NCBI GenBank assembly: GCA_022749895.1
Contig: JAKIWS010000005.1
Coordinates: 8,827-72,826 of the forward strand
Direction of reading: 5' to 3'
Length of the DNA stretch: 64,000 bases
Source of the DNA: Thermoplasmata archaeon
GTDB taxonomy: Archaea > Thermoplasmatota > Thermoplasmata > Lutacidiplasmatales > UBA184
Of this stretch, positions 16,687 to 38,305 are shown in pieces. A program made the position numbers and the translations under genes. Position 1 is the stretch's first letter. Each line of letters starts with the position of its first letter. Below the pieces are notes generated by a model. The model saw only the letters and a list, made by a program, of their open reading frames with translations. It made no database searches and was not told where the DNA came from.

Positions 16687-16743
16687 CTACGGGGTCGGAC
16701 CGCTAAGTTTCCGGGGAACCGGGATCTCTTGGGTGAGAACTAC

Positions 16744-19700
16744 ATGGAGCAAGCGAAAGCGTCGTACACGGGTCGTTGGGGAGGCCGCCGAGGGATCGGC
16801 ACGGCCATCGCCGCGGTGGTCATGGTCATCGTGATTGCCCTGGTCGGGGCCGGCACGTATGTCGGTCTCAATTCCCAGCCGCACGGGAACAAGACCGTCA
16901 AGTCGTGCACGCCGGCGAACTCTCCGATCTGTGTCGCTTCCGCACAGACGCACGATGTCGGTCTGCTGGTGCCGTTCAAGGCGTCGCAGACGGGCAATAC
17001 GGTTCCTTTCACCGCCATCCTCCCGGCCGGAGACACGGCCTCCAGTTTTGCGTTCAATTTTGGTGACAGTGGCCCCACGAGCACGGCGACCTCCACCCAG
17101 CCGACCGTGACCCACGTCTACTCGAGCGCGGGCGTCTACCTGATCTCCGTCCAGGCGACGGTCCGCGGCGTCGTGCACGACAACTACCAGAAGCTCACCG
17201 TTGTGACGGTCTCGGCGTTCGCGAGCGCGGGCGCCGCGAACCAGCCCGGCGTGTCGGGCTCGGTCGTGACCAACAGCACGGCGATCACCGGCTCTCCTCC
17301 CACGACGATTCTGCAGCCGGGCGGCTCCGTGACCTTCACGGGCTCCTACACCGCCGCTCCGACGAACCCGCAGTTCGTCTTCGCGTCCCCCACCATCATC
17401 TCCTCGACCGGCGGCACCGTTCAGGGAACGCCCACGAACACCACCACCTCCGCCACGGCCGCCTATTCGTTCGCGGCCTCGGGAACGTATGTGGTGACGT
17501 TCGTCGGGAAGGCCGTCAGCGGAACGGTGAGCGCCTTCCAGAACTACACTTGGACCGTCTTCGTCGCGCCGAGCGGCATCCACGCGGGGGTCGCCGGTAC
17601 GGGGGTCGCAACCAGCCCGCACAAGGGCTCGCTCAACATCTACGAAGAAACCCCCGGCGGCGGCACCAGCGAAGACCCGGCCGTCGACTACGAGACAGCG
17701 GGCTACGAGGTCATCCTCAACGTCTACCAGACCTTGATCGCGTACAACGGCAGCCAGACGGGTCCGACGTACGCGTCGTACGTCCCCCAGCTCGCGACGT
17801 GCGTGCCGGGAAGCCCGGCGTGCGCGCTGCAGTTCAGCGGCAACACGCTGGTCCGCGGCGACAACTACACCTTCGTCCTCGACTCGGCGGCGAAGTTCTT
17901 CGACCCGGCGACCAAGGCGTCCTGGGGCGTCTACCCGACCGACGTCCTGTTCAGCGTCGCGCGCACGATGAGCTTCGCGAACCTGCCGTCGTTCGGCGGC
18001 AACAACGGCTGGATCCTCGAGCAGGCGATGCTGCCCTCCGGGAACAAGAACTGGGACGGGGGCCTCCACGGCGCGCGGAACAACACCCCGGACAACATCT
18101 ACAGCCACGTCATCCTCAACGGGAGCGACTGCCCCGCCGTAGCGATGACCGGGGCGGCCTACCACGGCTGCGTCACCTTCTGGGCGAACGGCGCGGGTCA
18201 TTCCTGGCCGTACTTCCTGGAACTGATCGCGGACAACCTGGGCGCTTCGATCGTTCCGTGCGGCTGGTTCAGCGCGGCACCTCAGGTAGCGGGCATCCCG
18301 TACTGGACGTACAACAACGTCACCGGCTCGGGCGACCACCCGTGCGCCGCGCCCGGAACGCCCGGCTGGGGCCTCTCCCCGACGGCCATCGCGGCGAAGC
18401 CGACGGCGTGGGACAACTACCAGATGGTCGGCTCGGTGCCTCCGTTCTGGGGTAAGGTCCAGTGGGCGTTGGCGGGCAGCGGCCCGTACTACGTCCCGAC
18501 CGGCGGCTACCAGATCGGCTTGAGCTACCTGCTCCAGGCGAACCCCGCGTACGTCCAGCCGTCCTTCTGCCACGGCGCCGGCTGCGAGCCCGCCGCCGGC
18601 CAGTACGCCGCGAAGGTGAGCGTCATCTGGGAAACGACCCAGACGCCCGGCGAGCAGGCGTATGCGACGGGGGTCGCGGACGAAGCGTCGATCCCGGGAA
18701 CGGACACGGCGTTGCTGCTGTCGTTGGTCGCCCAGGGGAAGATCCAGGCGATCACGTTCCCGTCGATCAGCATCGACTTCTTCCCGTTCAACCTGTTGTT
18801 CAACGCCCCGGGGGCCGCGAAGTACACCTCGAACCCGATCACCGTGCAGCCGGACTTCTTCAGCTACCTCGCGGTGCGGCAGTTCTTCGCGCATGCGTAC
18901 CCGTACACGACGATCCAGTCGACGCTGAACACGATCGACGGGATCCAGGGGGCGTTCAACTACGGTGGGGCGATCCCGCAGTTCATGGCGAACTACTACC
19001 CCACCAACGTGAGCTTCCCCAACGCGGACCCGTGTGCGGACAACACGAAGGCCGCGTGCGCGGTGTACTGGTGGGCGCAAGCGACGAGCGCGTCGTCCCC
19101 GTACTACGATAAGGAGCTCGCGGCGTGTTCGTCGTCGAGTCCGTGCGAGGTGCCGCTGTTCGGCCAGACCGGCGCACCGACGCTCGATGAACGGATGGCG
19201 CTGTGGGCCGCCTCGATCAACACGATCTCGGGCGGTGCGGTCAAGGTCGACACGCTCGACATCAACTTCGTCGACGCGGTGATCAACTCTCTGTTCAGCC
19301 CGCCGGGCGCCAACGCGATGCCGTTCTACCGGCTCGGCTGGGCGCCCGACTACCCGGACCCGACGGACTACGTGACGCCGATGTACCTGCCCGACAGCAC
19401 GTACACCTCGGCGGACACCGTCGCGGAGCAGCTCGGGGTCGGCGTCAACACCGCGTTCAACGACAGCAGCTGTGCGACGACGGCGGCGTTCACGAACTAC
19501 GTCAAGTGGGCGTCGATTGCCCAGACGACCGGCGGGATCCCGAACAACTGCCAGGGCATGGCGTACAGCTCCATGACCTACCTCGAGGGCTTGGCGGCCG
19601 TCCAGCCGGCGGGCCCGCAGCGGGTGCTGATGTACAACTGGGTCGAGCAGATCGCGAACGCGCTCGCGCTCTACACCTACTCGTTCCAGAACAACTACAT

Positions 19701-19809
19701 CTACACCTACGCGAGCTGGATCGACGGGTCGACGATCAACAGCAACGTGACGATCGGGGGCGGCGGCGACTCGCTGTGGTACCTGATCGGCGGCAACGGG
19801 GTCTACTGA
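16744..19809 (+). CDS. oppA: Oligopeptide/dipeptide-type ABC substrate-binding protein (SBP family 5) with an N-terminal signal anchor and an inserted PKD domain.
   Basis: N-terminal TM AIAAVVMVIVIALVGAGTY. PKD motif FAFNFGDSGPTSTATSTQPTVTHVYSSAGVYLISVQATV. SBP_bac_5-like core (DPAVDYETAGYEVILNVYQTLIAYN, then GWAPDYPDPTDYVTPMY). About 1020 aa. Paralog of 35291-38305. Confidence 0.75.
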   Translation: MEQAKASYTGRWGGRRGIGTAIAAVVMVIVIALVGAGTYVGLNSQPHGNKTVKSCTPANSPICVASAQTHDVGLLVPFKASQTGNTVPFTAILPAGDTASSFAFNFGDSGPTSTATSTQPTVTHVYSSAGVYLISVQATVRGVVHDNYQKLTVVTVSAFASAGAANQPGVSGSVVTNSTAITGSPPTTILQPGGSVTFTGSYTAAPTNPQFVFASPTIISSTGGTVQGTPTNTTTSATAAYSFAASGTYVVTFVGKAVSGTVSAFQNYTWTVFVAPSGIHAGVAGTGVATSPHKGSLNIYEETPGGGTSEDPAVDYETAGYEVILNVYQTLIAYNGSQTGPTYASYVPQLATCVPGSPACALQFSGNTLVRGDNYTFVLDSAAKFFDPATKASWGVYPTDVLFSVARTMSFANLPSFGGNNGWILEQAMLPSGNKNWDGGLHGARNNTPDNIYSHVILNGSDCPAVAMTGAAYHGCVTFWANGAGHSWPYFLELIADNLGASIVPCGWFSAAPQVAGIPYWTYNNVTGSGDHPCAAPGTPGWGLSPTAIAAKPTAWDNYQMVGSVPPFWGKVQWALAGSGPYYVPTGGYQIGLSYLLQANPAYVQPSFCHGAGCEPAAGQYAAKVSVIWETTQTPGEQAYATGVADEASIPGTDTALLLSLVAQGKIQAITFPSISIDFFPFNLLFNAPGAAKYTSNPITVQPDFFSYLAVRQFFAHAYPYTTIQSTLNTIDGIQGAFNYGGAIPQFMANYYPTNVSFPNADPCADNTKAACAVYWWAQATSASSPYYDKELAACSSSSPCEVPLFGQTGAPTLDERMALWAASINTISGGAVKVDTLDINFVDAVINSLFSPPGANAMPFYRLGWAPDYPDPTDYVTPMYLPDSTYTSADTVAEQLGVGVNTAFNDSSCATTAAFTNYVKWASIAQTTGGIPNNCQGMAYSSMTYLEGLAAVQPAGPQRVLMYNWVEQIANALALYTYSFQNNYIYTYASWIDGSTINSNVTIGGGGDSLWYLIGGNGVY

Positions 19810-20794: not shown

Positions 20795-21985
20795 TCAAGC
20801 GGTCGTGGCCGCCACGGGCCCCCCCGCGGAGGTGGAGGTCGCCGTGGCGCCGGCGAGCGCCGCCTCCGTCGGAGGGTAGAGGTGGCAGGCGACGAAGTGG
20901 TCCGGCCGGATGGCGATCAGCGGGGGCTCGACCTTCGAGCAGATCGGCATGACGGCCGGGCACCGGGTGTGGAACCGGCACCCGGGCGGCGGCGCCGCCG
21001 GGCTCGGCACGTCCCCCCGGAGGACGATCCGCTCCCGGTGGAGCTGCGGGTCGGGGATCGGGATCGCCGACAGCAGGGCCTGGGTGTAGGGGTGGAGCGG
21101 TCGACCGAACAGCTCCTCGGTGGGAGCGCGCTCGACGACCTTGCCGAGGTACATCACCACGACGCGCCGCGAGACGGCCCGGACGACCGAGAGGTGGTGG
21201 GAGATGAACAGGTAGGCCAGGTTCTGGTCGGCTTGCAGGCGTTTGAGGATGTTGAGGATCTGGGCCTGGACGGAGACGTCGAGAGCGCTCGTGGGCTCGT
21301 CCAGCACGATGAAATCCGGGCGCAGGGCCAGGGCGCGGGCGATGCCGATCCGTTGGCGCTGACCTCCCGAGACTTCGTGGGGGAACCGCCAGAGGTGCTC
21401 GGGGTTGAGCCCCACCGCTTGCATTAGCTCCGCCACGCGCTGGTACCGCGCCTTCGGGGTACCGAGACGATGGATGGCGAGCGGCTCGGCGACGATGTCC
21501 CGCACGAGCATGCGCGGGCTCAAAGAGGAAAACGGGTCCTGGAAGACGATCTGGAGCTTGCCGCGGAGCTTCTGCAGCCGCCGGCCGCTCATCCGGTAGA
21601 TCGAGTACTGCTTCGCGATCTCGTCGAGCTCGGTGAGCAGCGAGGCCGAATTCGCGGGGAGCTCCTCCCCGTCCTCGTCCCCGGCGTACGCGGCGCCGAG
21701 CGACGTGTAGAGGCTCTCGAGCCGGGCGTGGACGTCCGCGGGGGGCTTGTAGAAGGTGTGGCCCGAGGTCGGCTCGATCAGGCGGAGGAGGAGACGTCCG
21801 ACCGTGGTCTTCCCGCATCCGGATTCGCCGACGAGACCGACGGTCTCGCCCTCGTGGACGTCGAACGAGACCCCGTCGACCGCGCGGACGTCCCCGATGT
21901 GGGTCGAGAAGACGCCGCCGCGGATCGGGAAGTATTTGCGGAGGTTGCGGACGGAGAGCAGTACCGAGTCATGGCCGTTGTCCAT
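20795..21985 (-). CDS. oppF: Oligopeptide ABC transporter ATP-binding protein (OppF/DppF type).
   Basis: Walker [10 protein letters not shown], signature LSGGQRQR, Walker [13 protein letters not shown], and a C-terminal oligopeptide-transporter extension with CRFHTRCP. Confidence 0.85.
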
Positions 21986-22006
21986 CCGCCCCGTCCCCCG
22001 TGACCC

Positions 22007-23596
22007 CTAGCCCTTGGCGACCGGTCCGTGGTAGAGGTAGCAGGCCACTTGATGGCCCTCCCCCTCGACCGTCATCGGGGGGCGCACCTCCTTGCAGATC
22101 GGCATCGCGTGGGGGCAGCGGGGATGGAATCGGCAGCCCGAGGGGGGATAAATGAGGTTGGGCACGGACCCGGGGATGGATTCGAGCGGTTTGGTCGGGT
22201 CGTCCATCCGCGGGATCGAGGCGAGCAGACCCTGGGCGTAGGGGTGGAGCGGCCGCAGGTAGAGATCCTTGACGGGGGCGATCTCGACGATGTTGCCCGC
22301 GTACATCACCGCCACCCGGTCCGCGACCTCGGCGATCACGCCCAGGTCGTGGGTGATGAGCATGATCGCGGTGCCGACCCGCTCTTTGAGGTTCTTCATC
22401 AATTCCAGGATCTGCGCCTGGATCGTGACGTCGAGCGCGGTCGTCGGCTCGTCCGCAATCAGGAGCTCCGGGTCGGACGAAAGCGCCATCGCGATCATCA
22501 CGCGCTGGAGCATGCCGCCGGAGAGCTCGTGGGGGTAGCCGCGGGCGACCTGGACGGGGTTGGCGATCCGGACCCCTTCGAGGAGACGCACCGCGTGCCA
22601 GAACGTCTCCTTCCGGATCGGTTTTCGGACATGGCCCCGGACCCCCCAGAGTCCGAAGTAGAACGTTCGGAGCCTGAGCGCCCACGTCCGGAGGGTGATC
22701 CTCCGCCGGGCCAGCGGCTCGGCCTTGCCGTTGCGCATCTCCCGTAGGTAGACCGCCTGCAATTCGCGGGCCAACGTCCGCAACGCCCGCTCGCGCTGGA
22801 GGTACCGGCGTTGGAGTTGGCTCATGTTCAGACGCCGGAACGCCCGCTCGATCTCGGGTCGCCGACTCTCCGGGTCGGCCCACGAGCCCCGGACCGCGTA
22901 GAACGCCTGGGTCCCGAGCGAAGCGAGGCCCGCGACGTCGCCGAGATGCTCCGCCGCGGCCCGCAGCGTATCCTGGTCGTTCTGGCGAGCGACCTTGAAC
23001 AACTGGTCCAAGGCCTCCTCGATCCGACCCGAGGAGAGTCCCGCTTCGGTCGTCCGCTCGGCGCGGAGCCGGCGGGCGCCGTCGGCCGCAAGACCGCGAC
23101 CGTGGCGGCCGGCCGACGCTTGGAGCAGGCCGTCGATGACCACCTCGCCCCGGTGCAGCATCAGCGCCTCCGAGATCTGGTCGGAGATCGAGAAGATCGG
23201 GTTCATCGCCGAGGTCGGCTCCTGGAAGATCATCGAGATGCCGCCGCCGCGGACGGCCGTCATCCTGGCCTGGCCCTGGCGAATCCTCCGGAACCTGCGG
23301 CTGACCTTGACGCGGCCCTTCTTCAGGGTCTTGAACTTCGCTTCCTTATCGAGCCCCCAGAGAAGGTTCGCCCCCTTGAACAGGATCGTCCCGTCCATGA
23401 TGCGTCCCGGCGGGTCCGGGATGAGCTTGGTCACCGAGAACGCCGTGACGCTCTTGCCGCAGCCGGTCTCGCCGACTAGCCCGATCGTCTCTCCGCGACG
23501 GATGTTGAACGTGACGCCGTCGAGCGCCTTGACGACGCCGTCGTAGGTGAAGAAGTAGGTCCGCAGACCGCGGATGTCCAGGACCACGTCGCCCAC
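22007..23596 (-). CDS. oppD: Oligopeptide ABC transporter ATP-binding protein (OppD/DppD type) carrying an insertion of about 190 aa between Walker A and the signature motif.
   Basis: GETGCGKS, signature [20 protein letters not shown] and CRFHPRCP. The total of 529 aa compares with about 330 for typical OppD. Confidence 0.85.
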
Positions 23597-23710
23597 CGGC
23601 TTCGGCGCGCTGGTTGCGACCGCGGACGGCGGTGCCTCCGCTGCGCGGAGCAGGGCGGGCTCGAGCGGGACGGGGGCCGATGACGGGAGGCTCGCGGAGG
23701 CGCTCAGGCG

Positions 23711-24880
23711 CTACCTCCGCAACCTCGGGTCGAGCGCGTCGCGGAGGCCGTCGGACAGGAAGTTCACCGAGATCGCGAACAGGAAGAGGGTGATGCCGGG
23801 GAAGAACAGCTGCCACCACGGGAAGAATTGGCAGGCGGCGACCGCGTTTTCGCAGGTGGTCAGCAAGCCGGGGATAGGGAGCACGGATAGGGCCGACATC
23901 GCCCCCCACTCAGGGAAGTACAGCGTTGGATAGATGTGGAATCCAAGAAAGACAATCGCCCCGATGCCGAGCGGGATCGTCCCCACGTCTAGCGACATCT
24001 GGACGAAAACGGGGTACATGCTGTTCGGCACGATGTGCTTGAGGAGGATGCGCCCCGACTTGGCCCCACTAGCCCGGGCGGCTTCGACATACTTCTGCTC
24101 CCGCGTTACGAGGACCTGGCCCCGGACGATCCGCGTGTAGATGGGCCACCATGTGATGATAAATGCGACCAGAAGGACTACAATCGAGCCGTAATTGGTC
24201 GCCCCGATCTGGATCTTGATCGAGTTGTTCAGGACCGAGAGGAGGACGATGACGAGGAGAAGCCCGGGGATGGAGAGGAAGACATCAGTGACCCGCATGA
24301 TGAATTCGTCCCACAGGCCACCCTTGAACCCCGCTAGGGCCCCCAACAGGAGACCTACGCCGGCCCCACTCGCGACGATCGTTGCCGAGAGCCCAAGTGA
24401 CCACGGCGCGCCCTTAATCAGTCCCGCGTAAATGTTGTAGAAGTAGTTGTTTCCCGGGCTGGCGGTGAGAGCGCCGAGAGGCAGCGGCCCACTCGTGAAA
24501 TGACCGATATTCACGGTCGGAGGTAGAAGCGATGGATTGAACTGATCGACTGGGTAGGCCGTCGGGCCGCACTGAGGAACAATATTCGGCGGGCTCGTAC
24601 ACACACTGATGCACCCAGTACTCGGGCCGCTTGGCTGAGAGTTTCCCGTGTAGGTCCCGCAGTACAACTGGAGCTGGGTCGCGGGTGCAGGATAGGAAAA
24701 CGAGTAAACAGCCACGATGACAAAGAACAGCAGAATGCCGAGGCCAATCATGGCCAGCGTGTTCTTCCGGAGGAAGTAGAACGTCCGCTGCATCTGGGCG
24801 ATGCGCGGGCTTGGGTGGCGGGGGGTACTGCCCCGCCGACGTAGCAGCGCACTGGGCGCGGTTGGGTCGATCGTCGCCAT
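23711..24880 (-). CDS. oppC: Oligopeptide ABC transporter permease (OppC/DppC type).
   Basis: An N-terminal TM is followed by a long Cys-containing loop. The BPD_transp_1 core carries the EAA-like region EAARASGAKSGRILLKHIVPN. Confidence 0.8.
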   Translation of the reverse strand: MATIDPTAPSALLRRRGSTPRHPSPRIAQMQRTFYFLRKNTLAMIGLGILLFFVIVAVYSFSYPAPATQLQLYCGTYTGNSQPSGPSTGCISVCTSPPNIVPQCGPTAYPVDQFNPSLLPPTVNIGHFTSGPLPLGALTASPGNNYFYNIYAGLIKGAPWSLGLSATIVASGAGVGLLLGALAGFKGGLWDEFIMRVTDVFLSIPGLLLVIVLLSVLNNSIKIQIGATNYGSIVVLLVAFIITWWPIYTRIVRGQVLVTREQKYVEAARASGAKSGRILLKHIVPNSMYPVFVQMSLDVGTIPLGIGAIVFLGFHIYPTLYFPEWGAMSALSVLPIPGLLTTCENAVAACQFFPWWQLFFPGITLFLFAISVNFLSDGLRDALDPRLRR

Positions 24881-24884
24881 GGGT

Positions 24885-26075
24885 CTACCCGAGTCGGACC
24901 CTCGGGTCCAGGTAGGCGTATAGAATGTCGACGAGGATGTTCGCCAACACGACGATGATTGTAAACAGCAGTGTGGTGCCGAAGATAAGGCCGTAGTCGA
25001 ACTGCGGCTGGATGGCGTACGTCAGGACCAGCCCAATTCCGCGGAGTCCGAAGATGTTCTCGATGATCGGGAATCCGCCGATGAACCCTGCGAACGTTAG
25101 CCCCAGTACGGTCACCGTGACGTTTAGCGAGTTGCGCCCCGCATGTCGCTTGATCACCTGGCGTTCCGCGACGCCCTTGGCCCGGGCGGTCCGGACGAAA
25201 TCCAGGTTCATGACCTCGAGCATGCTGTTGCGGACGAACCGAAGGATTCCCGCGATGCCCCCGAAGGTGATCACCAACGCGGGGACCAACATCCGCTTCA
25301 CGGACTCCCAGGCGAGGAACCAGTTTTGGTGGAGGGCCGCATCAACCGTGGGGAATCCCGTGGGCGTCGTCTGGAGGTACGGGCCGATCCACGATGGGTA
25401 TCGACCACCGGGAAGACATCCCAAATCCGGCCACGAATTGTGCCACTCCGCGTAGGGGGTCGACGTTCCGTTGCAAACCGCGCCAAAGCCCCCCGAGATA
25501 ACTGTGATTGCGGTCAGAGCGAGAATGGCAAGAAGGAATCCGGGGAGGGCGAAGCCGGAAAAGGAAAGGACCCGGGACGCCTGGTCAATCGGTCGGTTCC
25601 GATACACGGCGGAGTAGTTCCCGAGCGGGATCGCGAGGAGCAGGATCATGAACAGAGATATCGCGGCGAGTTCCAACGTGTAGGGCAGGAAGTAGGACAG
25701 GACCGTGGAGACGGGAGTCTGACCGGTGAGGGCGAAAGCGTGGGACGCCTGACTCTGCGACCCGGTGTACCCCCAGTTCAGCTGCAGGCTGTTGAAGATG
25801 TAATGGCCCCATTGGGTCCAAATCGGTTGGTCATAGCCGAGTTGATGGATGGCCGCCTCATAGGCGGGGTTCGGACACAGCGCCGTACTGCCCTGGGCGC
25901 ATGGGATGGTCGGAGTGCAGGGTGAAGCCGCACCATGACCGCTGCAGAGGTAGTACGACGAGACGCGTTCGCTGACGGGGATGGCCTGGATGATGACGAA
26001 GGTGATCGTCATCACGCCGATAATGACCGGAATGAGAAGCAGGGCTCGGCGAATGATGTACACCGACATCTTCAT
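24885..26075 (-). CDS. oppB: Oligopeptide ABC transporter permease (OppB/DppB type).
   Basis: MSVYIIRRALLLIPVIIGVMTITFVI N-terminus. The EAA-type loop is DFVRTARAKGVAERQVIKRHAGRN. Confidence 0.8.
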   Translation of the reverse strand: MKMSVYIIRRALLLIPVIIGVMTITFVIIQAIPVSERVSSYYLCSGHGAASPCTPTIPCAQGSTALCPNPAYEAAIHQLGYDQPIWTQWGHYIFNSLQLNWGYTGSQSQASHAFALTGQTPVSTVLSYFLPYTLELAAISLFMILLLAIPLGNYSAVYRNRPIDQASRVLSFSGFALPGFLLAILALTAITVISGGFGAVCNGTSTPYAEWHNSWPDLGCLPGGRYPSWIGPYLQTTPTGFPTVDAALHQNWFLAWESVKRMLVPALVITFGGIAGILRFVRNSMLEVMNLDFVRTARAKGVAERQVIKRHAGRNSLNVTVTVLGLTFAGFIGGFPIIENIFGLRGIGLVLTYAIQPQFDYGLIFGTTLLFTIIVVLANILVDILYAYLDPRVRLG

Positions 26076-30092: not shown

Positions 30093-30177
30093 GCGGCGGT
30101 CGCGCCTCGCGCCGATCGCTTCCCGTTTTCCGACGGAACTATCTTAGAGACGTCGCAGCCTACTCCGTCGATGACCG

Positions 30178-32883
30178 ATGAAACTCCGTGCACTTCGCCC
30201 GGCGCTGGTGATCCTGCTCGCCGCCGCCACGATCGCTAACTCGGCGCCGTTCGCGCTCGCCGCGGGCCCGCACGAACGAGCTCGCGGCGTGAGTTCTCCA
30301 TCGGCGATGTCACCCGACGCGGCCGCGATCCCCGCCGCGCTGCTGTCACCTTGGGCGGCCCGGGCCGGATATTCGCCCGCGTACGCGGCCGAAGTCGCAG
30401 GCGCCGGACCGGCCAGCGGGAATCTGACCGTCAGCCTCCAGCTCTGGCCGTCGACGACGTCGTTCTTCCGAACCCCGGCGCCCGGCGCCCCGGGCCTCAG
30501 TGTCGGGTCGCTCGCCGACCGGTACGGCCTCTCCCCCGCCGCGTACTCGTCCCTGGTCGCGTACTTCACCCACCGTGGGCTCGCCGTCCTCCACGCGTGG
30601 CCGGATCGCCTGGGGTTGACCGTGTCGGGACCCGCCGCGGCGATGGGCACCGCCTTCGGTACCCAGGTGCTTCAGGGCTCCTTCGAAGGTCGCACGGTCA
30701 CCTTTCCGGCCTCCGTGCCGACGCTCCCCGGGCCGTTCGCTACCGAAGTCGCTGCCGTCTCCGGCCTCACGTACGGCTTTTCCCGGTTCACGATCCCCTT
30801 CGCGACCGCCGCCCTTCCGGCGGGGTTCGGGGTCCACCCCGCGATCACCACCCCGTCGCGGAGCACCGATTTTGTCACTCCAGCGGGCGCCCGGCTCGTC
30901 TACGACTTGAACGGTCTCTACAACGTCTCCGGTACGCCGAAGTACGCGACCGGGATCGGGATCGCCCTGCTCCTGTGGGGGTGGGGGTACGACCCCGCCG
31001 ACATCCAGGGTTTCTTCGGGACGTACTACCCCAGCCAGTTCCCGGCGGTCCAGTACTCGGACGTGGCGGTCGACGGGGCACCGGCGGCCTCCGCACAGGC
31101 GCTCAACGACCCGAGCAACGCCCCCCTCGAGCTGACGCTCGACATCGAGTGGGCCGGCTCGATGGCCCCCGGGGCCAACCTCTACGCCGTCCACGGCCCA
31201 GACGGGCCGGCGAACAACAACTACTCGCCCACCGACGCGACGTTGGAAGACGCGCTCAACACCGCGGTGAACGGACTCTCCGGGGTCCGAGCGATCTCGA
31301 TGTCGTTCGGAACCCCCGACAGCTCGGACGCCTCGTTCCAGGCGGCCTTCTCGCTCCAGTTCGCGAAGGCGGCGAACCGGGGGATCACGCTCCTGGCCGC
31401 TTCCGGCGACAACGCCGGCGACGCGAAAACATCGTGCACGGGCGGACCCTCGCCCCAGTTCCCCGCCGCCTCCCCCGACGTGCTCGCGGTCGGCGGCACG
31501 GCCCCGATCCTAACGGCGGACCCCCTCGGACAGGTCACCGGCCTCTCCAGCGAGCCGGCGTGGAACGATTCCGGCGGCGGCTACTCGGCGACCTATCCCG
31601 CGCCATCGTGGCAGCTGGTGGGTTCGGCGGCCGGCCCGATCGGCGCGCACGGTTTCCGGGGGATCCCGGACGTCGCGGGTCCGTCGAACCGGAACTTCTT
31701 CTACTACGGCGGGCAAGCGCGCGCCGGCCAGGGGACCAGCTTTGCCACGCCGATGTGGGCCGGCCTCGTGACCGAGATGGACGCCGTCTCGGGCGACAAG
31801 CTCGGCTTCGTCAGCCCGCGCGTGTACGTCCTTGGCGCCGCGGAGGCGAACGGCACGGCCGGCGCGGGGCTCGTCGACATCACAAGCGGGGCGAACTGCC
31901 TCGGGAACGCCGTCACCGGTTGGGACCAGGTGACCGGCTGGGGCTCGCCCCGTGCGAAGACGCTCTACCTGGACCTCGTCTCGACGTTCGTCAACGTGTC
32001 GCTCGTCGCGACCCCCGCGCCGGTGCTACCGGGCGGCGCGCTGACGGTGACCGTCCTCGTCCTCAACCTGACCAGCGGGCGGCCGATCTCGACCCTCCCG
32101 GTCCAGTTCGCTCTCGCCGCTTCGAATGGATACACAGGCCCGTGCGGGGGGTCGCTGGCCACCGCGGTCGCCCCGACGAACGCGAGCGGCTTCGCGGTCG
32201 CGACCCTGGGTCTACCGGGGTGTTACTTCGGGAGCCACGCCACCGTCTCCGCCCTCGTGCAGACGAACGGCTTCTTCGGCAGCAACTCGACGAGCGTCGC
32301 GGTCAACCTCGAGAGCCTCGCCGGGTTCCTCGCCGCGCTCCACGTCTACCCGTACAACGTGATCGGGTTCGTGATCATCCTCCTCGTCGCGGTCGGCATC
32401 GCGTATGCGATTGGCGAGTTCCGCCACAAGCGGGCGCGCGCCCGGGCCACCCGAGCCCGTGCAGCGGCCGCTCCACCGGTCCGTCGGGCCGCCCCGCCCG
32501 CGGTCCGACCCGCTCCGCCGAAACCGGCCGCGGTCGTACCGTTGGCATCGAAACCGGCGCCGAGCTCGAGTATTTCCCCTATGACCGCGACCGGGGCCGG
32601 TACGACCCCAGGCCCCCTGGGCGGGAGCTCGTCCACGATGGCGGATCCGATCCCTACGTCGGTTCCTCCGCCCGATCCTCCTCCGTTGTCGGAAGAGACC
32701 GACGTAGAACCGGACCTCCCGACCGACGATCCTGTCCCGTCGACGGTCCCCGACCATGTCCTCGACCCCTCCGGGCCCGCGCCGGCCCCTCTGCCTTCGA
32801 GCGGCGCCTTCGCGTGTCCGGTGTGCCACGCGATCCACCCCGTAGGGACGAGCATCTGTTCCGTATGCGGGACCGCGCTCTAG
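30178..32883 (+). CDS. Sedolisin-type (S53) serine peptidase with signal peptide and pro-domain, a C-terminal TM anchor, a Pro/Ala-rich linker and a C-terminal C4 zinc ribbon.
   Basis: Signal MKLRALRPALVILLAAATIANSA. S53 motifs SGDNAGD and GGQARAGQGTSFATPMWAG. TM VIGFVIILLVAVGIAYAIG followed by RHKRARARA. The tail is CPVCHAIHPVGTSICSVCGTAL (C-X2-C-X10-C-X2-C). Confidence 0.7.
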   Translation: MKLRALRPALVILLAAATIANSAPFALAAGPHERARGVSSPSAMSPDAAAIPAALLSPWAARAGYSPAYAAEVAGAGPASGNLTVSLQLWPSTTSFFRTPAPGAPGLSVGSLADRYGLSPAAYSSLVAYFTHRGLAVLHAWPDRLGLTVSGPAAAMGTAFGTQVLQGSFEGRTVTFPASVPTLPGPFATEVAAVSGLTYGFSRFTIPFATAALPAGFGVHPAITTPSRSTDFVTPAGARLVYDLNGLYNVSGTPKYATGIGIALLLWGWGYDPADIQGFFGTYYPSQFPAVQYSDVAVDGAPAASAQALNDPSNAPLELTLDIEWAGSMAPGANLYAVHGPDGPANNNYSPTDATLEDALNTAVNGLSGVRAISMSFGTPDSSDASFQAAFSLQFAKAANRGITLLAASGDNAGDAKTSCTGGPSPQFPAASPDVLAVGGTAPILTADPLGQVTGLSSEPAWNDSGGGYSATYPAPSWQLVGSAAGPIGAHGFRGIPDVAGPSNRNFFYYGGQARAGQGTSFATPMWAGLVTEMDAVSGDKLGFVSPRVYVLGAAEANGTAGAGLVDITSGANCLGNAVTGWDQVTGWGSPRAKTLYLDLVSTFVNVSLVATPAPVLPGGALTVTVLVLNLTSGRPISTLPVQFALAASNGYTGPCGGSLATAVAPTNASGFAVATLGLPGCYFGSHATVSALVQTNGFFGSNSTSVAVNLESLAGFLAALHVYPYNVIGFVIILLVAVGIAYAIGEFRHKRARARATRARAAAAPPVRRAAPPAVRPAPPKPAAVVPLASKPAPSSSISPMTATGAGTTPGPLGGSSSTMADPIPTSVPPPDPPPLSEETDVEPDLPTDDPVPSTVPDHVLDPSGPAPAPLPSSGAFACPVCHAIHPVGTSICSVCGTAL

Positions 32884-32962: not shown

Positions 32963-33943
32963 GTGACCGAACCGCGCTCCAAGCATCCGTCGGTGGCCGA
33001 GGTCGCGCGCGATTACATTGGAGCCCATCCGAGCATCCGCGAGGCGTTGCGCGACGACCTGGTCAATTACGCCGCGCTCGCGCGGAAGATCCAGCAGGAG
33101 CAGGGCCTCGCGAGCCTCGAAGCGTTGACTGTCGCGTGCGCGCGCTACCAGCGGGCCGGCCGGGGCGATCCGCCCGGCCTCCTGGCGGTGCGCGCGATTG
33201 TCCGGAAGAGTCACCTGGAGGTGCATTCGCACGTGGCGTTGCTCCGGCTCGATGACGACTGGAGCGTCCTCGACGCCGTGCTCGCCCGGGGCCGCCGCGC
33301 CGTGAAGGAATCGACCGAAAGCCACCTGTTCGAGGTATTCCAAGGTACGCGGTCGGTGACGGTGCTCTGTCAGGAGCACCTCCTCCCGGCGCTCCTCAAC
33401 CTCGTTCCCGAGGCGAAGCGCCTCGGGACGGAGCGCGGGCTCAGTGTCCTCGCCTTCCGGAGCCGGCCCGGGGTCGCGGAAACGCCGGGCGTCCTGGCGT
33501 ACTCGGCCGATGAACTGTTCCGCAACGGGATCAACGCGCTCGAAACCGTCAGCGTTCACGCCGACTCGATCCTCGTGTTCCGGGACCGGGACGTCCTCCC
33601 CGCGTTCGCGACGTTGTCGCGCTTGTTGGCGACGTTGGACGGCCCCTTCGACCACGGTCGACAGGAACCCGCCCGGTTCTCGCGATCCATGGGTCGGGGG
33701 CCGCCAACCGCGAGCGAACCGAGACGGAGATCCCGCCGGCCCTCGTCGACGGGCAGCGAGGGTTCGGTCGACTCAATCGGGAGGGGCGCCCGGGGTCTCC
33801 GCGGGGGGGGGTGTCCCCGAATCCAGGTCAGGCTTCCACGGGTGGGGCTTCGCCCCGGCGCTCGGGGGTCCGGATCGGCTCGGGCGCCGACGGCGCGCTT
33901 TGCAGGGCGCCCTGGAGCAGCACCGATCGTTCGCGGGCATTGA
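32963..33943 (+). CDS. ACT-domain protein (predicted small-molecule-binding regulator). The 3' end is uncertain; it is a paralog of 34471-35166.
   Basis: ETPGVLAYSADELFRNGINALETVSVHADSILVFRDRDVLPAFATLSRL matches the ACT fold pattern. The N-terminus aligns with the paralog (IREALRDDLVNYAALARKI versus IRDCLGYDIVNFTALARKI). The conserved part ends near residue 235; the Arg-rich tail may be non-coding read-through. Confidence 0.5.
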   Translation: MTEPRSKHPSVAEVARDYIGAHPSIREALRDDLVNYAALARKIQQEQGLASLEALTVACARYQRAGRGDPPGLLAVRAIVRKSHLEVHSHVALLRLDDDWSVLDAVLARGRRAVKESTESHLFEVFQGTRSVTVLCQEHLLPALLNLVPEAKRLGTERGLSVLAFRSRPGVAETPGVLAYSADELFRNGINALETVSVHADSILVFRDRDVLPAFATLSRLLATLDGPFDHGRQEPARFSRSMGRGPPTASEPRRRSRRPSSTGSEGSVDSIGRGARGLRGGGCPRIQVRLPRVGLRPGARGSGSARAPTARFAGRPGAAPIVRGH

Positions 33944-34217
33944 GCCCCGGATGCTGGCCGTAGAGGTGAATCTCGAGACTGGCGCGGGTCGCGTACTGGC
34001 GCGCGCAGACCGGGCAGAGGAACGCTTGGGAGTCCCCGATGAAGCGGGAGCATTCGCACCCGACCACGTGGCACGGCATCGGGGTGGTCCGGTCGCGGGG
34101 GCGGCTGAAATGCCGGCGGAGCCGGCCGGTCTGGGGGGAGAGAAGGTAGTGGCTAGCCCGTAGGTGGGTGCAGACTCGGCAGGGGAGTAGGCGCAGATGA
34201 CGTCGCTGGGTGACCAC
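33828..34217 (-). CDS. Small C2H2 zinc-finger protein.
   Basis: FLCPVCARQYATRASLEIHLYGQH fits C-X2-C-X12-H-X4-H. Additional Cys/His pairs lie upstream (CRVCTHLRASH; CHVVGCECSRF). The start is uncertain. Confidence 0.45.
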   Translation of the reverse strand: MVTQRRHLRLLPCRVCTHLRASHYLLSPQTGRLRRHFSRPRDRTTPMPCHVVGCECSRFIGDSQAFLCPVCARQYATRASLEIHLYGQHPGLNARERSVLLQGALQSAPSAPEPIRTPERRGEAPPVEA

Positions 34218-34470: not shown

Positions 34471-35166
34471 ATGCCGGCGGGGAAGGGCGCGGGGCCGACA
34501 ACGGCGGAACTGACCCGGCGGTACATCGACGACCACCCGGCGATCCGCGACTGCTTGGGCTACGACATCGTGAACTTCACGGCCCTCGCCCGCAAGATAC
34601 GGGCCGAGACCGGCGCCCCCAACCAGGAGGCCATCGAGGTGGCCCTCCGCCGGTACCCTCGGTTGATGCGGCCCGAGAGGCCCCTCGAGCTCCGCGTGCT
34701 CGACGTGGTCAAAGGGAGCCGCCTCGAGGTCCGTACTCGCGTCGCGATCATCACGGCGCGCGCCGACTGGGATCTCCTGGGCCGCGTCCTGGAAACCGGT
34801 CGCACGCTGCTCGCCGATCACCGGCACTTGCTGCAGCTCCTCCAGGGACCCGGCGCCCTCACCATCCTCTGCGAGGAGGATCTCGTCGACGCCGTGCTCG
34901 CGGTCCTCGGCAAGCGACCCGTGATCGCGGTTCACCGGCAGCTCTCGGCGCTCACCGTGCGGAGCCCGGAATCGATCGTCGAGACCCCGGGCGTGCTGGC
35001 GTTCCTCGCGGGCGCGCTGTTCCGGGCGGGGATCAACAGCCTCGAACTGATGAGCGTCTACACGGATTCGACGTTCGTGGTACGGGAAGCGGATGTCGTC
35101 CATGCGTTCCAGGTTCTCTCGCGCCTCGTCCACCCCCCGGCCGACGGGGGCCGGGCGCTCGATTGA
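34471..35166 (+). CDS. ACT-domain protein, paralog of 32963-33943.
   Basis: ETPGVLAFLAGALFRAGINSLELMSVYTDSTFVVREADVVHAFQVLSRL. 231 aa. Confidence 0.55.
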   Translation: MPAGKGAGPTTAELTRRYIDDHPAIRDCLGYDIVNFTALARKIRAETGAPNQEAIEVALRRYPRLMRPERPLELRVLDVVKGSRLEVRTRVAIITARADWDLLGRVLETGRTLLADHRHLLQLLQGPGALTILCEEDLVDAVLAVLGKRPVIAVHRQLSALTVRSPESIVETPGVLAFLAGALFRAGINSLELMSVYTDSTFVVREADVVHAFQVLSRLVHPPADGGRALD

Positions 35167-35290
35167 GCCGGCCGATCTTGTCCGCTGTCCCCTCGCGTTC
35201 TCGGCGGAGGAATGCTGGTGAGAGGTATATATGAGCCCGAAGATAGGCGAGGCCTCCGAGAGAGCTTCTCTCCGGAGTCTGGGTTCGACG

Positions 35291-38200
35291 ATGTCGTATG
35301 TAGGTCGCCGTCGCATGGGGTTTAACGGTCCGCGTTCGCGTCGCGGGCTCTCGTCGATCGCCGGCGTGATCGTGATCGTGGTCGTCCTCGCCTTGATGGG
35401 CGTCACGACGTACGCACTTACGGGCGGCTTCTCGAAGACCCCCCCGCCCGCCTGCGCCCCCGCGGCGTCCCCCGTCTGCACGGCCTCCCTGAACCTACAC
35501 GACGTGAGCGTCCTCCTCCCCTACCGGTCGGTCCAGGAGGGGGCGAACGTCCCCGTCACAGCTTCCGTCCCGAACGGCGAGGTCGTCTCGAACTACTTCT
35601 TCAATTTCGGCGATACGTCGAACGTTAGCTCCCGCGACGCGACCAGCACGCACGTCTACGCGGTGCCCGGGATCTACCTCATCGTGGTCCTGGCGAAGGT
35701 CAATGGCGTCTTGCACGACAACATCCAGGGGCTGGTCCAGATCGTGGTCTCCGCCACGTTCACCTCCAACACCGCGGGCAATCTCCCGTCGGTCTCCGGT
35801 TCGATCGTCTCCAACTCCACAACGACCGCATCCCAGAAGGGCGCGACCGCCGTGCTGCTGCCGCAGCAGAGCGTCACGCTCTCGGCCGCCTACACCGCGG
35901 CTCCGACCAACCCCGCCTACACGATCCTGAAGCCGAGCTTCGTCGTCGGGGGCGGGCTCACCTCGACCTTCGTGATCACCAACACTAGCGCCATCGCGAC
36001 CGTCACGGCCGCGACGCCCGGTCTCCATACGGTCACGTTCGTCGGGGGTGCCCAAAGCGGCAACCTGACCGCGTGGCAGAACTTCACCTGGAACGTCTTC
36101 GTCGCGCCGCCCTCGGTCCACGCCGGCGTCACCGGCCAGCAGCACCACAAGAGCCCCCACGCCGGGTCGATCATCGCCTACGAGCTCGTCCCCGGAGGGT
36201 CGGCGAGCGAGGATCCCGCGATCGACTACGAGACCGCCGGCGCGGAAGCGATCTACAACGTCTACCAGCCGCTCATCACCTACAACGGCACGCAGGTCGG
36301 GCCGGACCCGAACAGCTTCGTGCCGGTGCTAGCGACGTGCGTTCCGGGCAGCGCGCAGTGCCAGCGGATGTACAGCTCGACCCTGGTCTCCGGGACCGAC
36401 TACACCTTCGTCATCAACCCGAACTCGAGCTTCTACGACCCGTCGACCCAGAACCACTGGGGCGTCTGGCCGACCGACGTCGTCTTCAGCATCGCGCGGA
36501 CCGTCGGCTTCGCCAACCTGCCGTGCGTCTCGTGCAACCCCGGCTGGATCATCGCCCAGGCGCTGCTCGACCCCGGCAACCCCGGATGGAGCAACCTCCA
36601 CAGCTCGTTCAACAACACCCCGCTCCCCGTGTTCAACTCGATGACGATCAACGAGAGCGGCGTCTGCACCACCGTGATGATGGACCCCGCGACCGGGCAC
36701 GGATGCGTCACGTTCCATGCACACGGCCACGGGAACGCCTGGCCGTACTTCCTCGAGCTGATGGCCGACCCGCTCGGGGGCGGCATCGTGCCGTGCGGAT
36801 GGTTCAGCGCCTCGTCGCAGGGCGCCGGGATCCCGTTCTGGACGGCCGGAAACGTCACCGGCGCGGGCGACCAGCCGTGCGGGGCTCCGGGCAGCCCGGG
36901 CTGGGGTCGCGCGCCGGCCAACATTCCGCCGCTTGGATGGGACCAGTGGGAGCAGCTCGGGAGCGGCGCGTTCGGAACGTACCTCGGGCACGTCCAGTGG
37001 AACATGCTCGGGAGCGGTCCCTACTACATGTCCCAGTTCGTCCTCGGCGTCTCGTTCACCCTGCAGGCGAACCCGGCCTACAGCCAGAACCCGTACTGCA
37101 CGTGGTCCGGCTGTGAGCCCAAGCCCGGGACCTTCGCGAAGACGGTCGACGTCTCGTGGGAGACCTCGGCGACGCCGGGCGAGCAGGCCGCGAGCAGCGG
37201 CGTTGCGGACTTCGCCTCGATACCTTCCGCCGACATCGCGTTGCTCCTCGAGCTGATCCAGCAGGGGAAGGTCCAGACGATCAACGCCCCGACGATCACG
37301 ATCGCGTTCTATCCGTTCAACTTGAACTTCAACTTGGGCGGGGCGCAAAAGTACACCTCGAACCCGATCACGGTCAACAACGACTGGTTCAGCTACCTCG
37401 GCATGCGCCAGCTGTTCGAGCGCGCGTACCCCTACACGACGATCGCGAACACGCTGCAGACGAAGGACGGACTCGTCCTGTCGTTCAACTACGGCGGGGC
37501 GATCCCGCAGTACATGGCGAACTACTACCCGACGAACATTCCGTGGCCGAACACCGACCCGTGCACCGACGCGTCGAAGGTCGCGTGCCCGGCGTACTGG
37601 TGGGCCCAGTTGCACAACACGTCGGGCCCGTACTTCGACCCCGAGGTGCTCCGCTGCTCCTCCGGCAACCCCTGCTCGCTCCCGATGTTCGGTGGCACGG
37701 GCTCCGCGTCCAACGACCAGCGGATGGCGCTCTGGGCGGCGTCCGTCAACACCGTCACCGGCGGCGCGGTCGTGGTCAACCCGGTCGACATCAACTTCGT
37801 CGACATCCTGATCAACGCCGCCGCGGGACCCGGGGTCAATTCGCTGCCGACGTACGCCCTCGGGTGGGCGCCGGACTACCCCGACCCGACCGACTACGTG
37901 AACCCGCTCTACCTCCCCAACGCCACCTACACGTTCGGGGACGCGGTCATGCAGCAGCTCTGGCAGACGCAGTTCGCGTCGAACTGCGCGCACCCGACGT
38001 CGGACTACCTGTACTACGCGAACAACAGCTTCCCGCAGAGCTGCCAGGGGGTCGCCTACAAGGCGATGCTCGTCGCGCTCGGTCTCGCGTCGACGGCGCC
38101 CGCCGGTCCGGCGCGGGTGCTATTGTACGACTACGCGGAGAAGATCGCCTACCAGCTCGCGCTCTACACCTACACGGGTCAGGGGAACCTGATCTACCCG

Positions 38201-38305
38201 TCGGCGACGTGGATCGACTCGTCGACCCTCAACACCAACATCACCATCGGGGGCGGCGGGGACGAGCTGTTCTTCAACGTGCAAGGGAACGGCGTCGCAG
38301 GCTAG
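35291..38305 (+). CDS. Orphan oligopeptide-type ABC substrate-binding protein (SBP family 5) with a signal anchor and a PKD domain; paralog of 16744-19809.
   Basis: TM IAGVIVIVVVLALMGVTTY. PKD motif FFNFGDTSNVSSRDATSTHVYAVPGIYLIVVLAKV. SBP core DPAIDYETAGAEAIYNVYQPLITYN ... GWAPDYPDPTDYVNPLY. No transporter genes lie next to it. The upstream ATG at 35231 sits inside a TATA-like GGTATATATG, so the start was moved to 35291; 35315 is also possible. Confidence 0.7.
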   Translation: MSYVGRRRMGFNGPRSRRGLSSIAGVIVIVVVLALMGVTTYALTGGFSKTPPPACAPAASPVCTASLNLHDVSVLLPYRSVQEGANVPVTASVPNGEVVSNYFFNFGDTSNVSSRDATSTHVYAVPGIYLIVVLAKVNGVLHDNIQGLVQIVVSATFTSNTAGNLPSVSGSIVSNSTTTASQKGATAVLLPQQSVTLSAAYTAAPTNPAYTILKPSFVVGGGLTSTFVITNTSAIATVTAATPGLHTVTFVGGAQSGNLTAWQNFTWNVFVAPPSVHAGVTGQQHHKSPHAGSIIAYELVPGGSASEDPAIDYETAGAEAIYNVYQPLITYNGTQVGPDPNSFVPVLATCVPGSAQCQRMYSSTLVSGTDYTFVINPNSSFYDPSTQNHWGVWPTDVVFSIARTVGFANLPCVSCNPGWIIAQALLDPGNPGWSNLHSSFNNTPLPVFNSMTINESGVCTTVMMDPATGHGCVTFHAHGHGNAWPYFLELMADPLGGGIVPCGWFSASSQGAGIPFWTAGNVTGAGDQPCGAPGSPGWGRAPANIPPLGWDQWEQLGSGAFGTYLGHVQWNMLGSGPYYMSQFVLGVSFTLQANPAYSQNPYCTWSGCEPKPGTFAKTVDVSWETSATPGEQAASSGVADFASIPSADIALLLELIQQGKVQTINAPTITIAFYPFNLNFNLGGAQKYTSNPITVNNDWFSYLGMRQLFERAYPYTTIANTLQTKDGLVLSFNYGGAIPQYMANYYPTNIPWPNTDPCTDASKVACPAYWWAQLHNTSGPYFDPEVLRCSSGNPCSLPMFGGTGSASNDQRMALWAASVNTVTGGAVVVNPVDINFVDILINAAAGPGVNSLPTYALGWAPDYPDPTDYVNPLYLPNATYTFGDAVMQQLWQTQFASNCAHPTSDYLYYANNSFPQSCQGVAYKAMLVALGLASTAPAGPARVLLYDYAEKIAYQLALYTYTGQGNLIYPSATWIDSSTLNTNITIGGGGDELFFNVQGNGVAG

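Follow-up and report, generated by a model that had tools for sequence, protein, structure and literature searches.

A sedolisin with a predicted membrane anchor and cytoplasmic zinc-ribbon tail in Thermoplasmata

Sedolisins (peptidase family S53) are textbook soluble acid proteases. A stretch of 64,000 nucleotides from a Thermoplasmata archaeon (Lutacidiplasmatales; contig JAKIWS010000005.1), referred to as the window, encodes on its forward strand at positions 30178..32883 a member of this family which is predicted to be anchored in the cytoplasmic membrane and to carry a zinc-binding tail on the inside. From N- to C-terminus, the 901-residue peptidase displays a signal peptide, a prodomain, the S53 catalytic domain, an immunoglobulin (Ig)-like beta-sandwich, a transmembrane (TM) helix, a basic cluster, a linker and a ribbon with four cysteines (Cys4). 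As judged from the sequences compared, the combination of S53 domain, TM helix and ribbon is a pervasive lineage-specific architecture found in about 140 sequence clusters, and not a one-off fusion. The interpretation favoured here, with moderate confidence, is a surface-tethered acid sedolisin that feeds a nearby peptide ATP-binding cassette (ABC) transporter and uses its tail as a handle to which cytoplasmic proteins dock.

The peptidase and its predicted membrane anchor

The peptidase is encoded by a single intact open reading frame (ORF) starting with ATG. In DNA of about 69% GC, the GC content of the ORF reached 0.87 at third codon positions and 0.60 at second positions, and it was therefore considered a true coding frame. 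The protein had been highlighted by an annotation made from the sequence alone (first-pass annotation), and the strings quoted there were all recovered: SGDNAGD at residues 409-415, GTSFATPMWAG at residues 519-529 and the terminal CPVCHAIHPVGTSICSVCGTAL at residues 880-901. That annotation had also named a stop codon or a frameshift ahead of the TM segment as the observation that would overturn it; none was present in the sequence data. The ORF is continuous, an NCBI entry ('S53 family peptidase [Thermoplasmata archaeon]', P0001, on a 76.8-kb contig of a metagenome-assembled genome, MAG) is identical over the 901 residues, and independent assemblies encode the same in-frame succession of TM helix, linker and ribbon. 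As far as sequence data allow, this agreement excludes a frameshift or a chimera as the origin of the peptidase ORF.

The assignment of the protein to the sedolisins, as already proposed in the first-pass annotation, is solid. A phmmer search against the PDB matched residues 259-598 to kumamolisin-As (1sio, E=8.1e-34) and to human TPP1 (3ee6, E=1.9e-16). The 120 best homologues were collected, 116 of them were aligned, and an AlphaFold2 model built on these 116 homologues gave a mean predicted local distance difference test (pLDDT) value of 84.7. Using Foldseek, the model was superposed on intact pro-kumamolisin 1T1E, prodomain included (E=3.1e-34, target-normalised template-modelling score of 0.79, 565 columns), and on 1SIO with a score of 0.83. 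Residues E318, D322, D411 and S521 align to E78, D82, D164 and S278 of kumamolisin and are invariant in 116/116 homologues. Fold, Ser-Glu-Asp triad with oxyanion Asp (D411), and prodomain all identify the protein as an S53 peptidase. Since the four catalytic residues are invariant, the enzyme should be active. A Pfam match to Peptidase_S8 (E=4.6e-9) reflects the relatedness within clan SB; identity as a membrane-anchored S8 subtilase was rejected, as the triad is Glu-Asp-Ser and not Asp-His-Ser.

The catalytic domain (30952..31971 (+), residues 259-598) carries, next to the four catalytic residues, the cysteines C420 and C574. Towards its end the sequence GWDxxTGWGSP is conserved, with D583 nearly invariant and G587, G589 and P591 invariant; at the level of the motif only, it aligns with the Ca2+-site region of kumamolisin. 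The catalytic domain is preceded by a pro-kumamolisin-type activation domain (30262..30951 (+), residues ~29-258) modelled with pLDDT >90. The corresponding Pfam match (PF09286) stays under the cut-off of 23.5 bits in the peptidase itself (E=0.011, 16.4 bits), and most homologues exceed that threshold. At the N-terminus, a Sec-type signal peptide was recognised (30178..30261 (+), residues 1-28) with a basic n-region, an h-region at residues 9-27 and A-L-A ahead of the cleavage site predicted by the AxA rule. The model shows a helix over residues 6-21 in this region, followed by a low-pLDDT stretch. On the other side of the catalytic domain, residues 599-715 (31972..32322 (+)) form a seven-stranded Ig/FN3-like beta-sandwich (pLDDT 86) which includes C656 and C682. 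Its best Foldseek matches are macroglobulin MG, GH3 FnIII-like and CARDB domains (E~1e-5 to 6e-4), and due to the generic nature of these matches the domain is treated, on the basis of the model, as a likely spacer lifting the protease away from the membrane. The protein contains eight cysteines, four in the ectodomain and four within 18 residues at the extreme C-terminus. Among the 116 homologues, C420, C574 and C682 are invariant and C656 nearly so, which makes two conserved pairs.

According to the Kyte-Doolittle hydropathy, only two segments of the peptidase are hydrophobic, namely the signal h-region (residues 9-27) and residues 728-746 (value of 2.77). The latter is the core of a stalk and TM helix (32323..32415 (+)), is preceded by a conserved (F/Y)PYN and lies in an unbroken helix of the model (residues 726-763). 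A C-terminal TM helix is present in nearly all of the 120 best homologues. The helix is followed by a basic stop-transfer cluster, EFRHKRARARATRARAAAA (32416..32472 (+)), a positive-inside signal. The sequence directly C-terminal to the TM segment, EFRHKRARARATRA, counts 7 K/R in 14 residues, and the first 40 residues of the tail have 11 K/R and 1 D/E (net +10). All nine N-x-S/T sequons are located in the ectodomain, with none in the tail. A Cys4 metal site is suited to the reducing cytoplasm. Taken together, the signal-like N-terminus, the single TM helix, the +10 flank, the sequons and cysteine pairs confined to the ectodomain, and the cytoplasm-suited Cys4 site predict an N-out, C-in type-I membrane protein. 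The membrane anchor with a cytoplasmic tail, as suggested in the first-pass annotation, is supported at the level of topology prediction by the single helix, its basic flank, the charge pattern and the model.

The predicted cytoplasmic tail and its distribution

Beyond the basic cluster, the tail continues with a disordered linker rich in Pro, Ala and Ser (32473..32745 (+), residues 766-856; pLDDT <50), which becomes acidic distally, a short linear motif VPDHVLDP (32746..32769 (+), residues 857-864) and the C-terminal Cys4 ribbon ACPVCHAIHPVGTSICSVCGTAL, which together with the stop codon occupies 32812..32883 (+). The linker is about 110 residues long, and Pro makes up 27% of residues 761-878. 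The ribbon has the pattern C880-x2-C883-x10-C894-x2-C897 (CPVC-x10-CSVC) and was modelled as a two-strand knuckle over residues 877-888 with pLDDT ~80. The Pfam profile Zn_Ribbon_1 (PF13240) matches the peptidase with E=0.054 and 13.7 bits, under the gathering cut-off of 25, and several homologues have precomputed matches to PF13240, PF13248 or PF24460. The name of the short-ribbon class PF13240/PF13248/DUF7575 is used for it in a descriptive sense, with no claim to curated membership, and the ribbon is predicted to bind zinc. Resemblances to an NZF/RanBP2-type finger or a MIM2-like MIT-interacting motif are not claimed, as the flanking consensus residues mismatch. The ribbon has no K/R, and the last 80 residues of the tail contain no K/R and 11 D/E (net -11). 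Because of this composition, the chemistry of the tail argues for protein-protein contact rather than nucleic-acid binding.

Across the family, the linear motif conforms to [VI]P[DA]H[VL], most often in the form VPDHVL[DE]PP, and is located 13-59 residues upstream of the ribbon. It was detected in 31/68 tails with a ribbon and in 0/48 without (Fisher p=2.8e-9, a value which does not account for shared ancestry). An alignment of motif and ribbon from a subset of the tails (A2, 54 columns) shows no variation at the P and H of the motif. The median tail length is 134 residues in the presence of the ribbon and 61 residues in its absence (p=2e-19, shared ancestry likewise not accounted for). As the motif occurs only together with the ribbon, and tails lacking the ribbon are short, linker, motif and ribbon behave as one unit which is kept or lost together.

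The pattern C-x2-C-x10-C-x2-C is present at the C-terminus of 68 of the 116 aligned orthologues. Within these 68 sequences, the four cysteines and the spacer of 10 residues are without exception, the ribbon is located at the C-terminus or within 2-27 residues of it, and the profile reads C-P-x-C-G-x-x-[VLF]-P-x5-C-P-x-C-G-x-x-L, most other positions being variable. A monophyletic subgroup of 13 members carries the variant CPxCxFxFxPxxxFCPRCGHYL, and two of its members have a precomputed Pfam DUF7575 match. Neighbour-joining analysis of the ectodomain placed the ribbon in a single deep clade, where 68 of 83 members carry it and about six losses are scattered; a clade of 33 members is devoid of it. 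The same was analysed among species representatives of the Thermoplasmata loci with conserved gene order (L001-L022, see below), where the ribbon was found in 8 of about 19 (L001, L002, L003, L005, L017, L016, L021, L022) and was absent from about ten. The tail is thus retained in a good part of the orthologues, and the uniform absence that the first-pass annotation had considered as counter-evidence was not observed. Even the syntenic orthologues that diverge most (L016, L021, L022; 37-43% identity) have the ribbon, which was therefore probably ancestral in the syntenic S53 genes and lost repeatedly. Since the enzyme was kept when the ribbon was lost, the tail appears dispensable for the core function, and hence modulatory rather than essential. 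One of these divergent orthologues, encoded in L022 by the S53 ORF from position 9292, has a cytoplasmic tail of 484 residues ahead of its ribbon.

Distant S53 paralogues of Thermoplasmata (28-31% identity; L024, L029, L048, L057, L066) also end in a TM helix and a ribbon. A homology search seeded with the L057 protein delivered a paralogue family (about 29% identity) of 79 clusters, 77 of which have the TM helix and 74 the TM helix and the ribbon. In this family the ribbon is strongly conserved (TF[LA]CPYCGAxRPAEPVRCPxCGA[LFY]). An atypical ending, CPRC-x17-CHRC, was noticed in the 1596-residue S53 protein at L024:9515-14305. None of the 52 bacterial sedolisin loci encodes a ribbon, and most of these proteins end a few residues past the catalytic domain, which agrees with the contrast to ordinary soluble sedolisins drawn at the outset. 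The ribbon was equally absent from the 40 remote matches of the L057-seeded search, the few with source names being bacterial. With the cysteines and the x10 spacing fixed, the ribbon present in divergent orthologues and in 74/79 paralogue clusters, and none in the 52 bacterial loci, the sequences indicate that the tail is clearly under selection.

The first-pass annotation regarded the tail as a portable module shared with two surface proteins of the window. Portability was confirmed to some extent: a C4 ribbon behind a TM helix occurs on the S53 paralogue family (74/79), on further distant S53 proteins, on a subtilase-clan peptidase in L016 and on a protein with three TM helices in L029. However, nearly all of these carriers are peptidases of clan SB, the surface proteins bear a different finger, and two direct searches found nothing. 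In the first of these, the A2 profile was run against 1.84 billion representatives and delivered 12,856 matches at E<=1e-3; the top 150 were multi-ribbon proteins (median of 7 ribbons), none with VPDHV, so that this search reflects the generic ribbon class only and is uninformative on portability. In the second, a back-translated scan of metagenome contigs for [VI]PDHVL[DE]PP, a search of low sensitivity which missed known members, produced 26 hits, all 26 by chance or out of frame and with neither ribbon nor TM helix. That this exact tail is portable to proteins other than clan-SB peptidases is therefore a weak proposition, for which the one example is the unrelated three-TM protein of L029 (L029:400-1653, 417 residues), the sole non-peptidase carrier found. 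The L016 peptidase (L016:11894-13870) is a tandem second gene with its own TM helix and ribbon.

The two surface proteins are encoded at 8652..10256 (+) and 2..3073 (+). The former has 534 residues, a C-terminal TM helix at nucleotides 10050-10106 and a cytoplasmic C2H2 finger at nucleotides 10173-10244. The latter is a paralogue truncated at its 5' end, with a C-terminal TM helix at nucleotides 2816-2872 and a C2H2 finger at nucleotides 2987-3058 (zf-C2H2_6, E=9e-4). No convincing Pfam match was obtained for either ectodomain. The idea that peptidase and surface proteins follow the same logic is valid for the TM anchor combined with a cytoplasmic finger, but not for the module itself: the fingers of the surface proteins are classical C2H2 fingers (C-x2-C-x12-H-x4-H; zf-C2H2_6, E~1e-3) and not C4 ribbons. 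Among 11 homologues of the 534-residue protein, the tail GRAMWGGAKPxPAQPW...NEC[PS][VI]CHQTF..E...KEH.K.AHG is near-invariant in the 10/10 full-length sequences, in contrast to an ectodomain whose identity falls to 34%. The remaining homologue (P0131), encoded on a contig of 1.4 kb, lacks the finger at its end and was taken as truncated. When mapped on the classical C2H2 pattern, the DNA-contact positions of the helix are occupied by T, E, E, A and E, and with acidic residues at these positions DNA binding by the fingers is unlikely.

Four large proteins of the window that combine a signal peptide with a C-terminal TM helix were examined, and three of them bear a finger. The exception is a Kelch beta-propeller and PKD surface protein of 1174 residues (3268..6792 (+)), which has a signal peptide, a C-terminal TM helix and a short Pro-rich tail. 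In 530 kb of related DNA, a sample biased to S53 loci, 32 ORFs encode a C-terminal TM helix, and 13 of these encode a finger as well. A lineage-wide 'inside handle' is tentatively considered, and is rather doubtful, in which the C4 ribbon (with VPDHV) on sedolisins and the C2H2 finger on adhesin-like proteins would each dock a dedicated cytoplasmic partner. If true, candidate partners would be a membrane skeleton, a vesicle or ESCRT-type sorting machinery or a quality-control system, and type-I ectoproteins would be coupled to intracellular machinery in a manner comparable to that of eukaryotic receptors with their cytoplasmic tails. Two further ORFs of the window with zinc motifs were noted. 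One is an 80-residue ORF (58988..59227 (+)) whose two CxxC...CxxC pairs make up a double zinc ribbon, and which may encode a small zinc-finger protein. The other, the second C4 match in the scan of the window, lies at 12405..13073 (-) and displays CQVC-x12-CPRC near the C-terminus followed by a Gly/Arg/His-rich tail; it resembles a Csl4-type subunit of the exosome and seems ordinary.

Genomic neighbourhood and candidate functions

The closest genomic matches are the Lutacidiplasmatales soil MAGs AcS5-107 (70% identity) and Ca. Lutacidiplasma silvani AcS3-62. The GC content of the window is in line with that of Lutacidiplasmatales, a lineage of acidic soil (PMC9287336). The genes are arranged in the order OppF-OppD-OppC-OppB (-), two small genes, SRP54 (-), a GltD-like oxidoreductase (+) and S53 (+), followed by a DUF7523 block or by PheRS. 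From Pfam analysis, the Opp genes (20795..26075 (-)) encode the OppF/OppD ATPases and the OppC/OppB permeases of a peptide ABC transporter and make up a complete OppBCDF-type operon. The order of Opp, SRP54, GltD-like and S53 genes recurs in practically all of the 22 loci, even where S53 identity falls to 37%, and the S53 gene is a positional orthologue. The gap to the co-directional GltD-like gene upstream is 85 nucleotides, which is compatible with co-transcription. A TATA-like AT-rich element read from the sequence, AACTATCTTAGAGA (30137..30150 (+), ~30-40 nucleotides 5' of the ATG), is a possible promoter of the S53 gene itself. A membrane-anchored family-5 peptide/oligopeptide solute-binding protein of 1024 residues (Pfam SBP_bac_5 and PKD; N-terminal TM helix) is encoded at 35231..38305 (+). 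A second large family-5 solute-binding protein (16369..19809 (+), 1146 residues) has an N-terminal TM anchor and PKD as well. Its listed start is probably about 140 codons too far 5', as the N-terminus resembles non-coding sequence and overlaps 15958..16686 (-).

For Lutacidiplasmatales, S53 enzymes were described as ranking with the commonest peptidases that are predicted to be extracellular and acid-active, alongside a peptide ABC transporter (PMC9287336). This inventory, the synteny of S53 with OppFDCB in 22 loci and the flanking family-5 binding proteins suggest a nutritional role for the tethered sedolisin. In the proposed mechanism, the S53 zymogen would be exported by Sec and stay on the outer face of the membrane as a type-I protein, the juxtamembrane basic cluster fixing its topology. 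The prodomain would presumably be self-removed at the low pH of acidic soil, as in kumamolisin. The tethered enzyme could then cut environmental proteins beside the peptide-binding proteins and the Opp transporter, so that the products would be captured by the cell itself and loss by diffusion avoided. On the inner side, the disordered linker would present the VPDHV motif and the terminal ribbon to a putative cytoplasmic partner. Docking, the most likely function of the tail, would help to position the enzyme, to cluster or sort it, or to control its turnover.

Several observations weigh against this proposal. S53 and the Opp genes do not share an operon, and the conserved gene order includes the housekeeping genes SRP54 and PheRS; linkage alone is therefore weak functional evidence. 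On the side of the tail, the statistics on motif and length ignore shared ancestry, the ribbon was lost at least five to six times with the enzyme kept, and outside the cysteines the orthologue ribbons are highly variable and of a generic short-ribbon class. The gene neighbourhood of the syntenic loci did not reveal any partner of the tail. The block of DUF7523, small C2H2-like and solute-binding protein genes was considered as a strict partner and rejected. It follows S53 in L001, L002, L003, L005 and L017 only; a ribbon is present in 5/5 of these loci, but the block is missing from L016, L021 and L022, which do have the ribbon, and the association is probably a clade effect. In the window, the two DUF7523 proteins are encoded directly 3' of S53 at 32963..33943 (+) and 34471..35166 (+), the second with ACT_7, and may be amino-acid-responsive regulators. 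A Cys/His-rich protein of 129 residues (33828..34217 (-)) with a C2H2-like pattern CPVC-x12-H-x4-H is 77-91% identical in L001, L002, L003 and L005, the same degree of conservation as SRP54. The 3' end of its gene overlaps that of the convergent DUF7523 ORF 32963..33943 by 116 nucleotides, so that the last ~55 codons of the DUF7523 ORF may be unreal.

The strongest alternative, considered less likely, is a passive cap or rivet. The ribbon would be a stable zinc knob without any partner which blocks threading of the tail into AAA+ proteases (proteasome/PAN, LonB) or slippage in the translocon, and thereby only stabilises the enzyme. The nearly free variation of the orthologue ribbons beyond the four cysteines and a few Pro/Gly would fit such a cap, as would the generic and hugely abundant ribbon class, the placement always at or 2-27 residues from the C-terminus, and the repeated loss with the enzyme kept. 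It leaves unexplained, however, why VPDHV is conserved together with the ribbon (31/68 versus 0/48). The linkers of ~110 residues are kept only alongside the ribbon, whereas a shorter tail would need no cap, as in the ribbon-less lineages. In the paralogue family, moreover, non-Cys positions of the ribbon are strongly conserved (TFLCPYCGAxRPAEPVRCPRCGAL).

The first-pass annotation had hinted at a circuit of regulated proteolysis. In a more general form, the tail would be released or switched by events in the ectodomain and act on transcription or on finger-tagged proteins. The succession of ectodomain, TM helix and cytoplasmic zinc module does recall zinc-binding anti-sigma factors, binding of nucleic acids or RNA polymerase is common among zinc ribbons and C2H2 fingers, and the putative regulators just described (two DUF7523 proteins, one with ACT, and the small C2H2-like protein) adjoin S53. 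Such signalling is nonetheless improbable. The absence of K/R in the ribbon, the net charge of -11 in the distal tail and the residues T/E/E/A/E at the C2H2 contact positions oppose nucleic-acid binding; peptidase and surface proteins differ in finger type and share no 'tag'; many lineages retain enzyme and synteny but have lost the ribbon; and the DUF7523 block tracks the ribbon only in part, as seen in L016, L021 and L022. No intramembrane protease was found among the annotated genes near S53. With these charges and finger types, and with peptide uptake as the conserved context, the circuit was not retained. Two related readings were also rejected. A membrane-tethered DNA-binding transcription factor is unlikely from the lack of K/R in the ribbon, the acidic distal tail and the acidic recognition positions of the C2H2 fingers. 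Zinc-binding anti-sigma-type regulators are type-II proteins with an N-terminal cytoplasmic HxxxCxxC, a TM helix and an extracytoplasmic sensor. The topology of the peptidase is the reverse, HxxxCxxC is absent and no sigma factor was detected among the annotated genes near S53.

That the tail is a misjoined or frameshifted frame, or a chance Cys pattern, might be suspected from the ribbon score below the Pfam cut-off (13.7 versus 25 bits) and the low complexity of the tail, but this is practically negligible given an unbroken ORF with coding-type GC3, an identical protein deposited independently, TM helix, linker and C-terminal CxxC-x10-CxxC in frame in ~140 cluster representatives from many assemblies, and no Cys in the rest of the tail.

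Significance and comparison with known systems

Two deep paralogue families of S53, altogether about 140 clusters, appear to be built as type-I proteins with a conserved intracellular zinc module. In terms of ecology, these abundant acidic-soil archaea would digest protein at the cell surface beside their importers and not via free exoenzymes. As cell-bound activity differs from dissolved activity, this would alter how their contribution to soil nitrogen turnover is modelled and measured. A conserved finger on an ectohydrolase, along with the even better conserved C2H2 tails of the surface proteins nearby, would imply a connection between inside and outside in archaea, for which motif and ribbon (about 50 residues) define a bait. 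For annotation, counts of 'extracellular peptidases' based on signal peptides in Thermoplasmata probably include many membrane-bound enzymes. A literature search, not covering most subscription journals, did not reveal any description of a membrane-anchored sedolisin, a ribbon-tailed archaeal surface protein or the motif. What is new here is a sedolisin with a predicted type-I C-terminal ribbon on a long linker, plus the VPDHV motif; the enzyme itself is ordinary.

The ectodomain is closest to kumamolisin and pro-kumamolisin (S53; 1T1E, 1SIO, 1GT9) and to human TPP1 (3EE6), with which it shares the prodomain, the subtilisin-like domain, the Glu-Asp-Ser triad and the oxyanion Asp at ~30% identity. 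By analogy with kumamolisin, acid activation of the archaeal sedolisin is presumed. Kumamolisin and TPP1 are soluble (secreted or lysosomal) and end soon past the catalytic domain, while the archaeal sedolisin adds spacer, TM helix, linker, motif and ribbon. The 'extracellular S53 peptidases' of Lutacidiplasmatales (Sheridan et al., 2022; PMC9287336) belong to the same lineage and family, with the same proposed acid-active scavenging of peptides. In that work, S53 was classified by Pfam family and signal peptide only, no membrane anchor was given, and the word 'zinc' has 0 occurrences.

A similar overall arrangement exists in family S8. The subtilases mycosin MycP1 and S1P/SKI-1 likewise have a prodomain, a subtilisin fold, a single C-terminal TM helix and a basic cytoplasmic tail, which is short in S8, and both appear as distant fold matches of the peptidase model (4hvl, 9csd). 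MycP1 and S1P differ by their Asp-His-Ser triad, by their functions in type VII secretion and in regulated proteolysis in the Golgi, and by having neither a ribbon nor a long linker. The PGF-CTERM/archaeosortase and MYXO-CTERM signals also place a hydrophobic C-terminal helix and basic residues on a secreted surface protein. These signals stop a few residues past the basic cluster and get cleaved off, whereas the tail of the sedolisin runs 155 residues further. As conserved elements are contained in these 155 residues, a sortase-type C-terminal sorting signal (PGF-CTERM and similar) was ruled out.

For the ribbon, the nearest parallels are YdjL and YdjG of B. subtilis and ZnR-PspC, which display the same pair of knuckles of ~22 residues (CxxC-x10/11-CxxC), near the membrane and in the cytoplasm. 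Short zinc ribbons on bacterial membrane-associated proteins were described as a recurring accessory module (PMC11237479). In the TM examples of that study, the ribbons precede the TM segment in the sequence (two in YdjG, a single one in some PspC orthologues), and that of YdjL follows the band-7 domain. The archaeal sedolisin differs from YdjL, YdjG and PspC in that its ribbon is located at the extreme C-terminus of a predicted type-I ectoenzyme and is presented on a long linker together with a linear motif.

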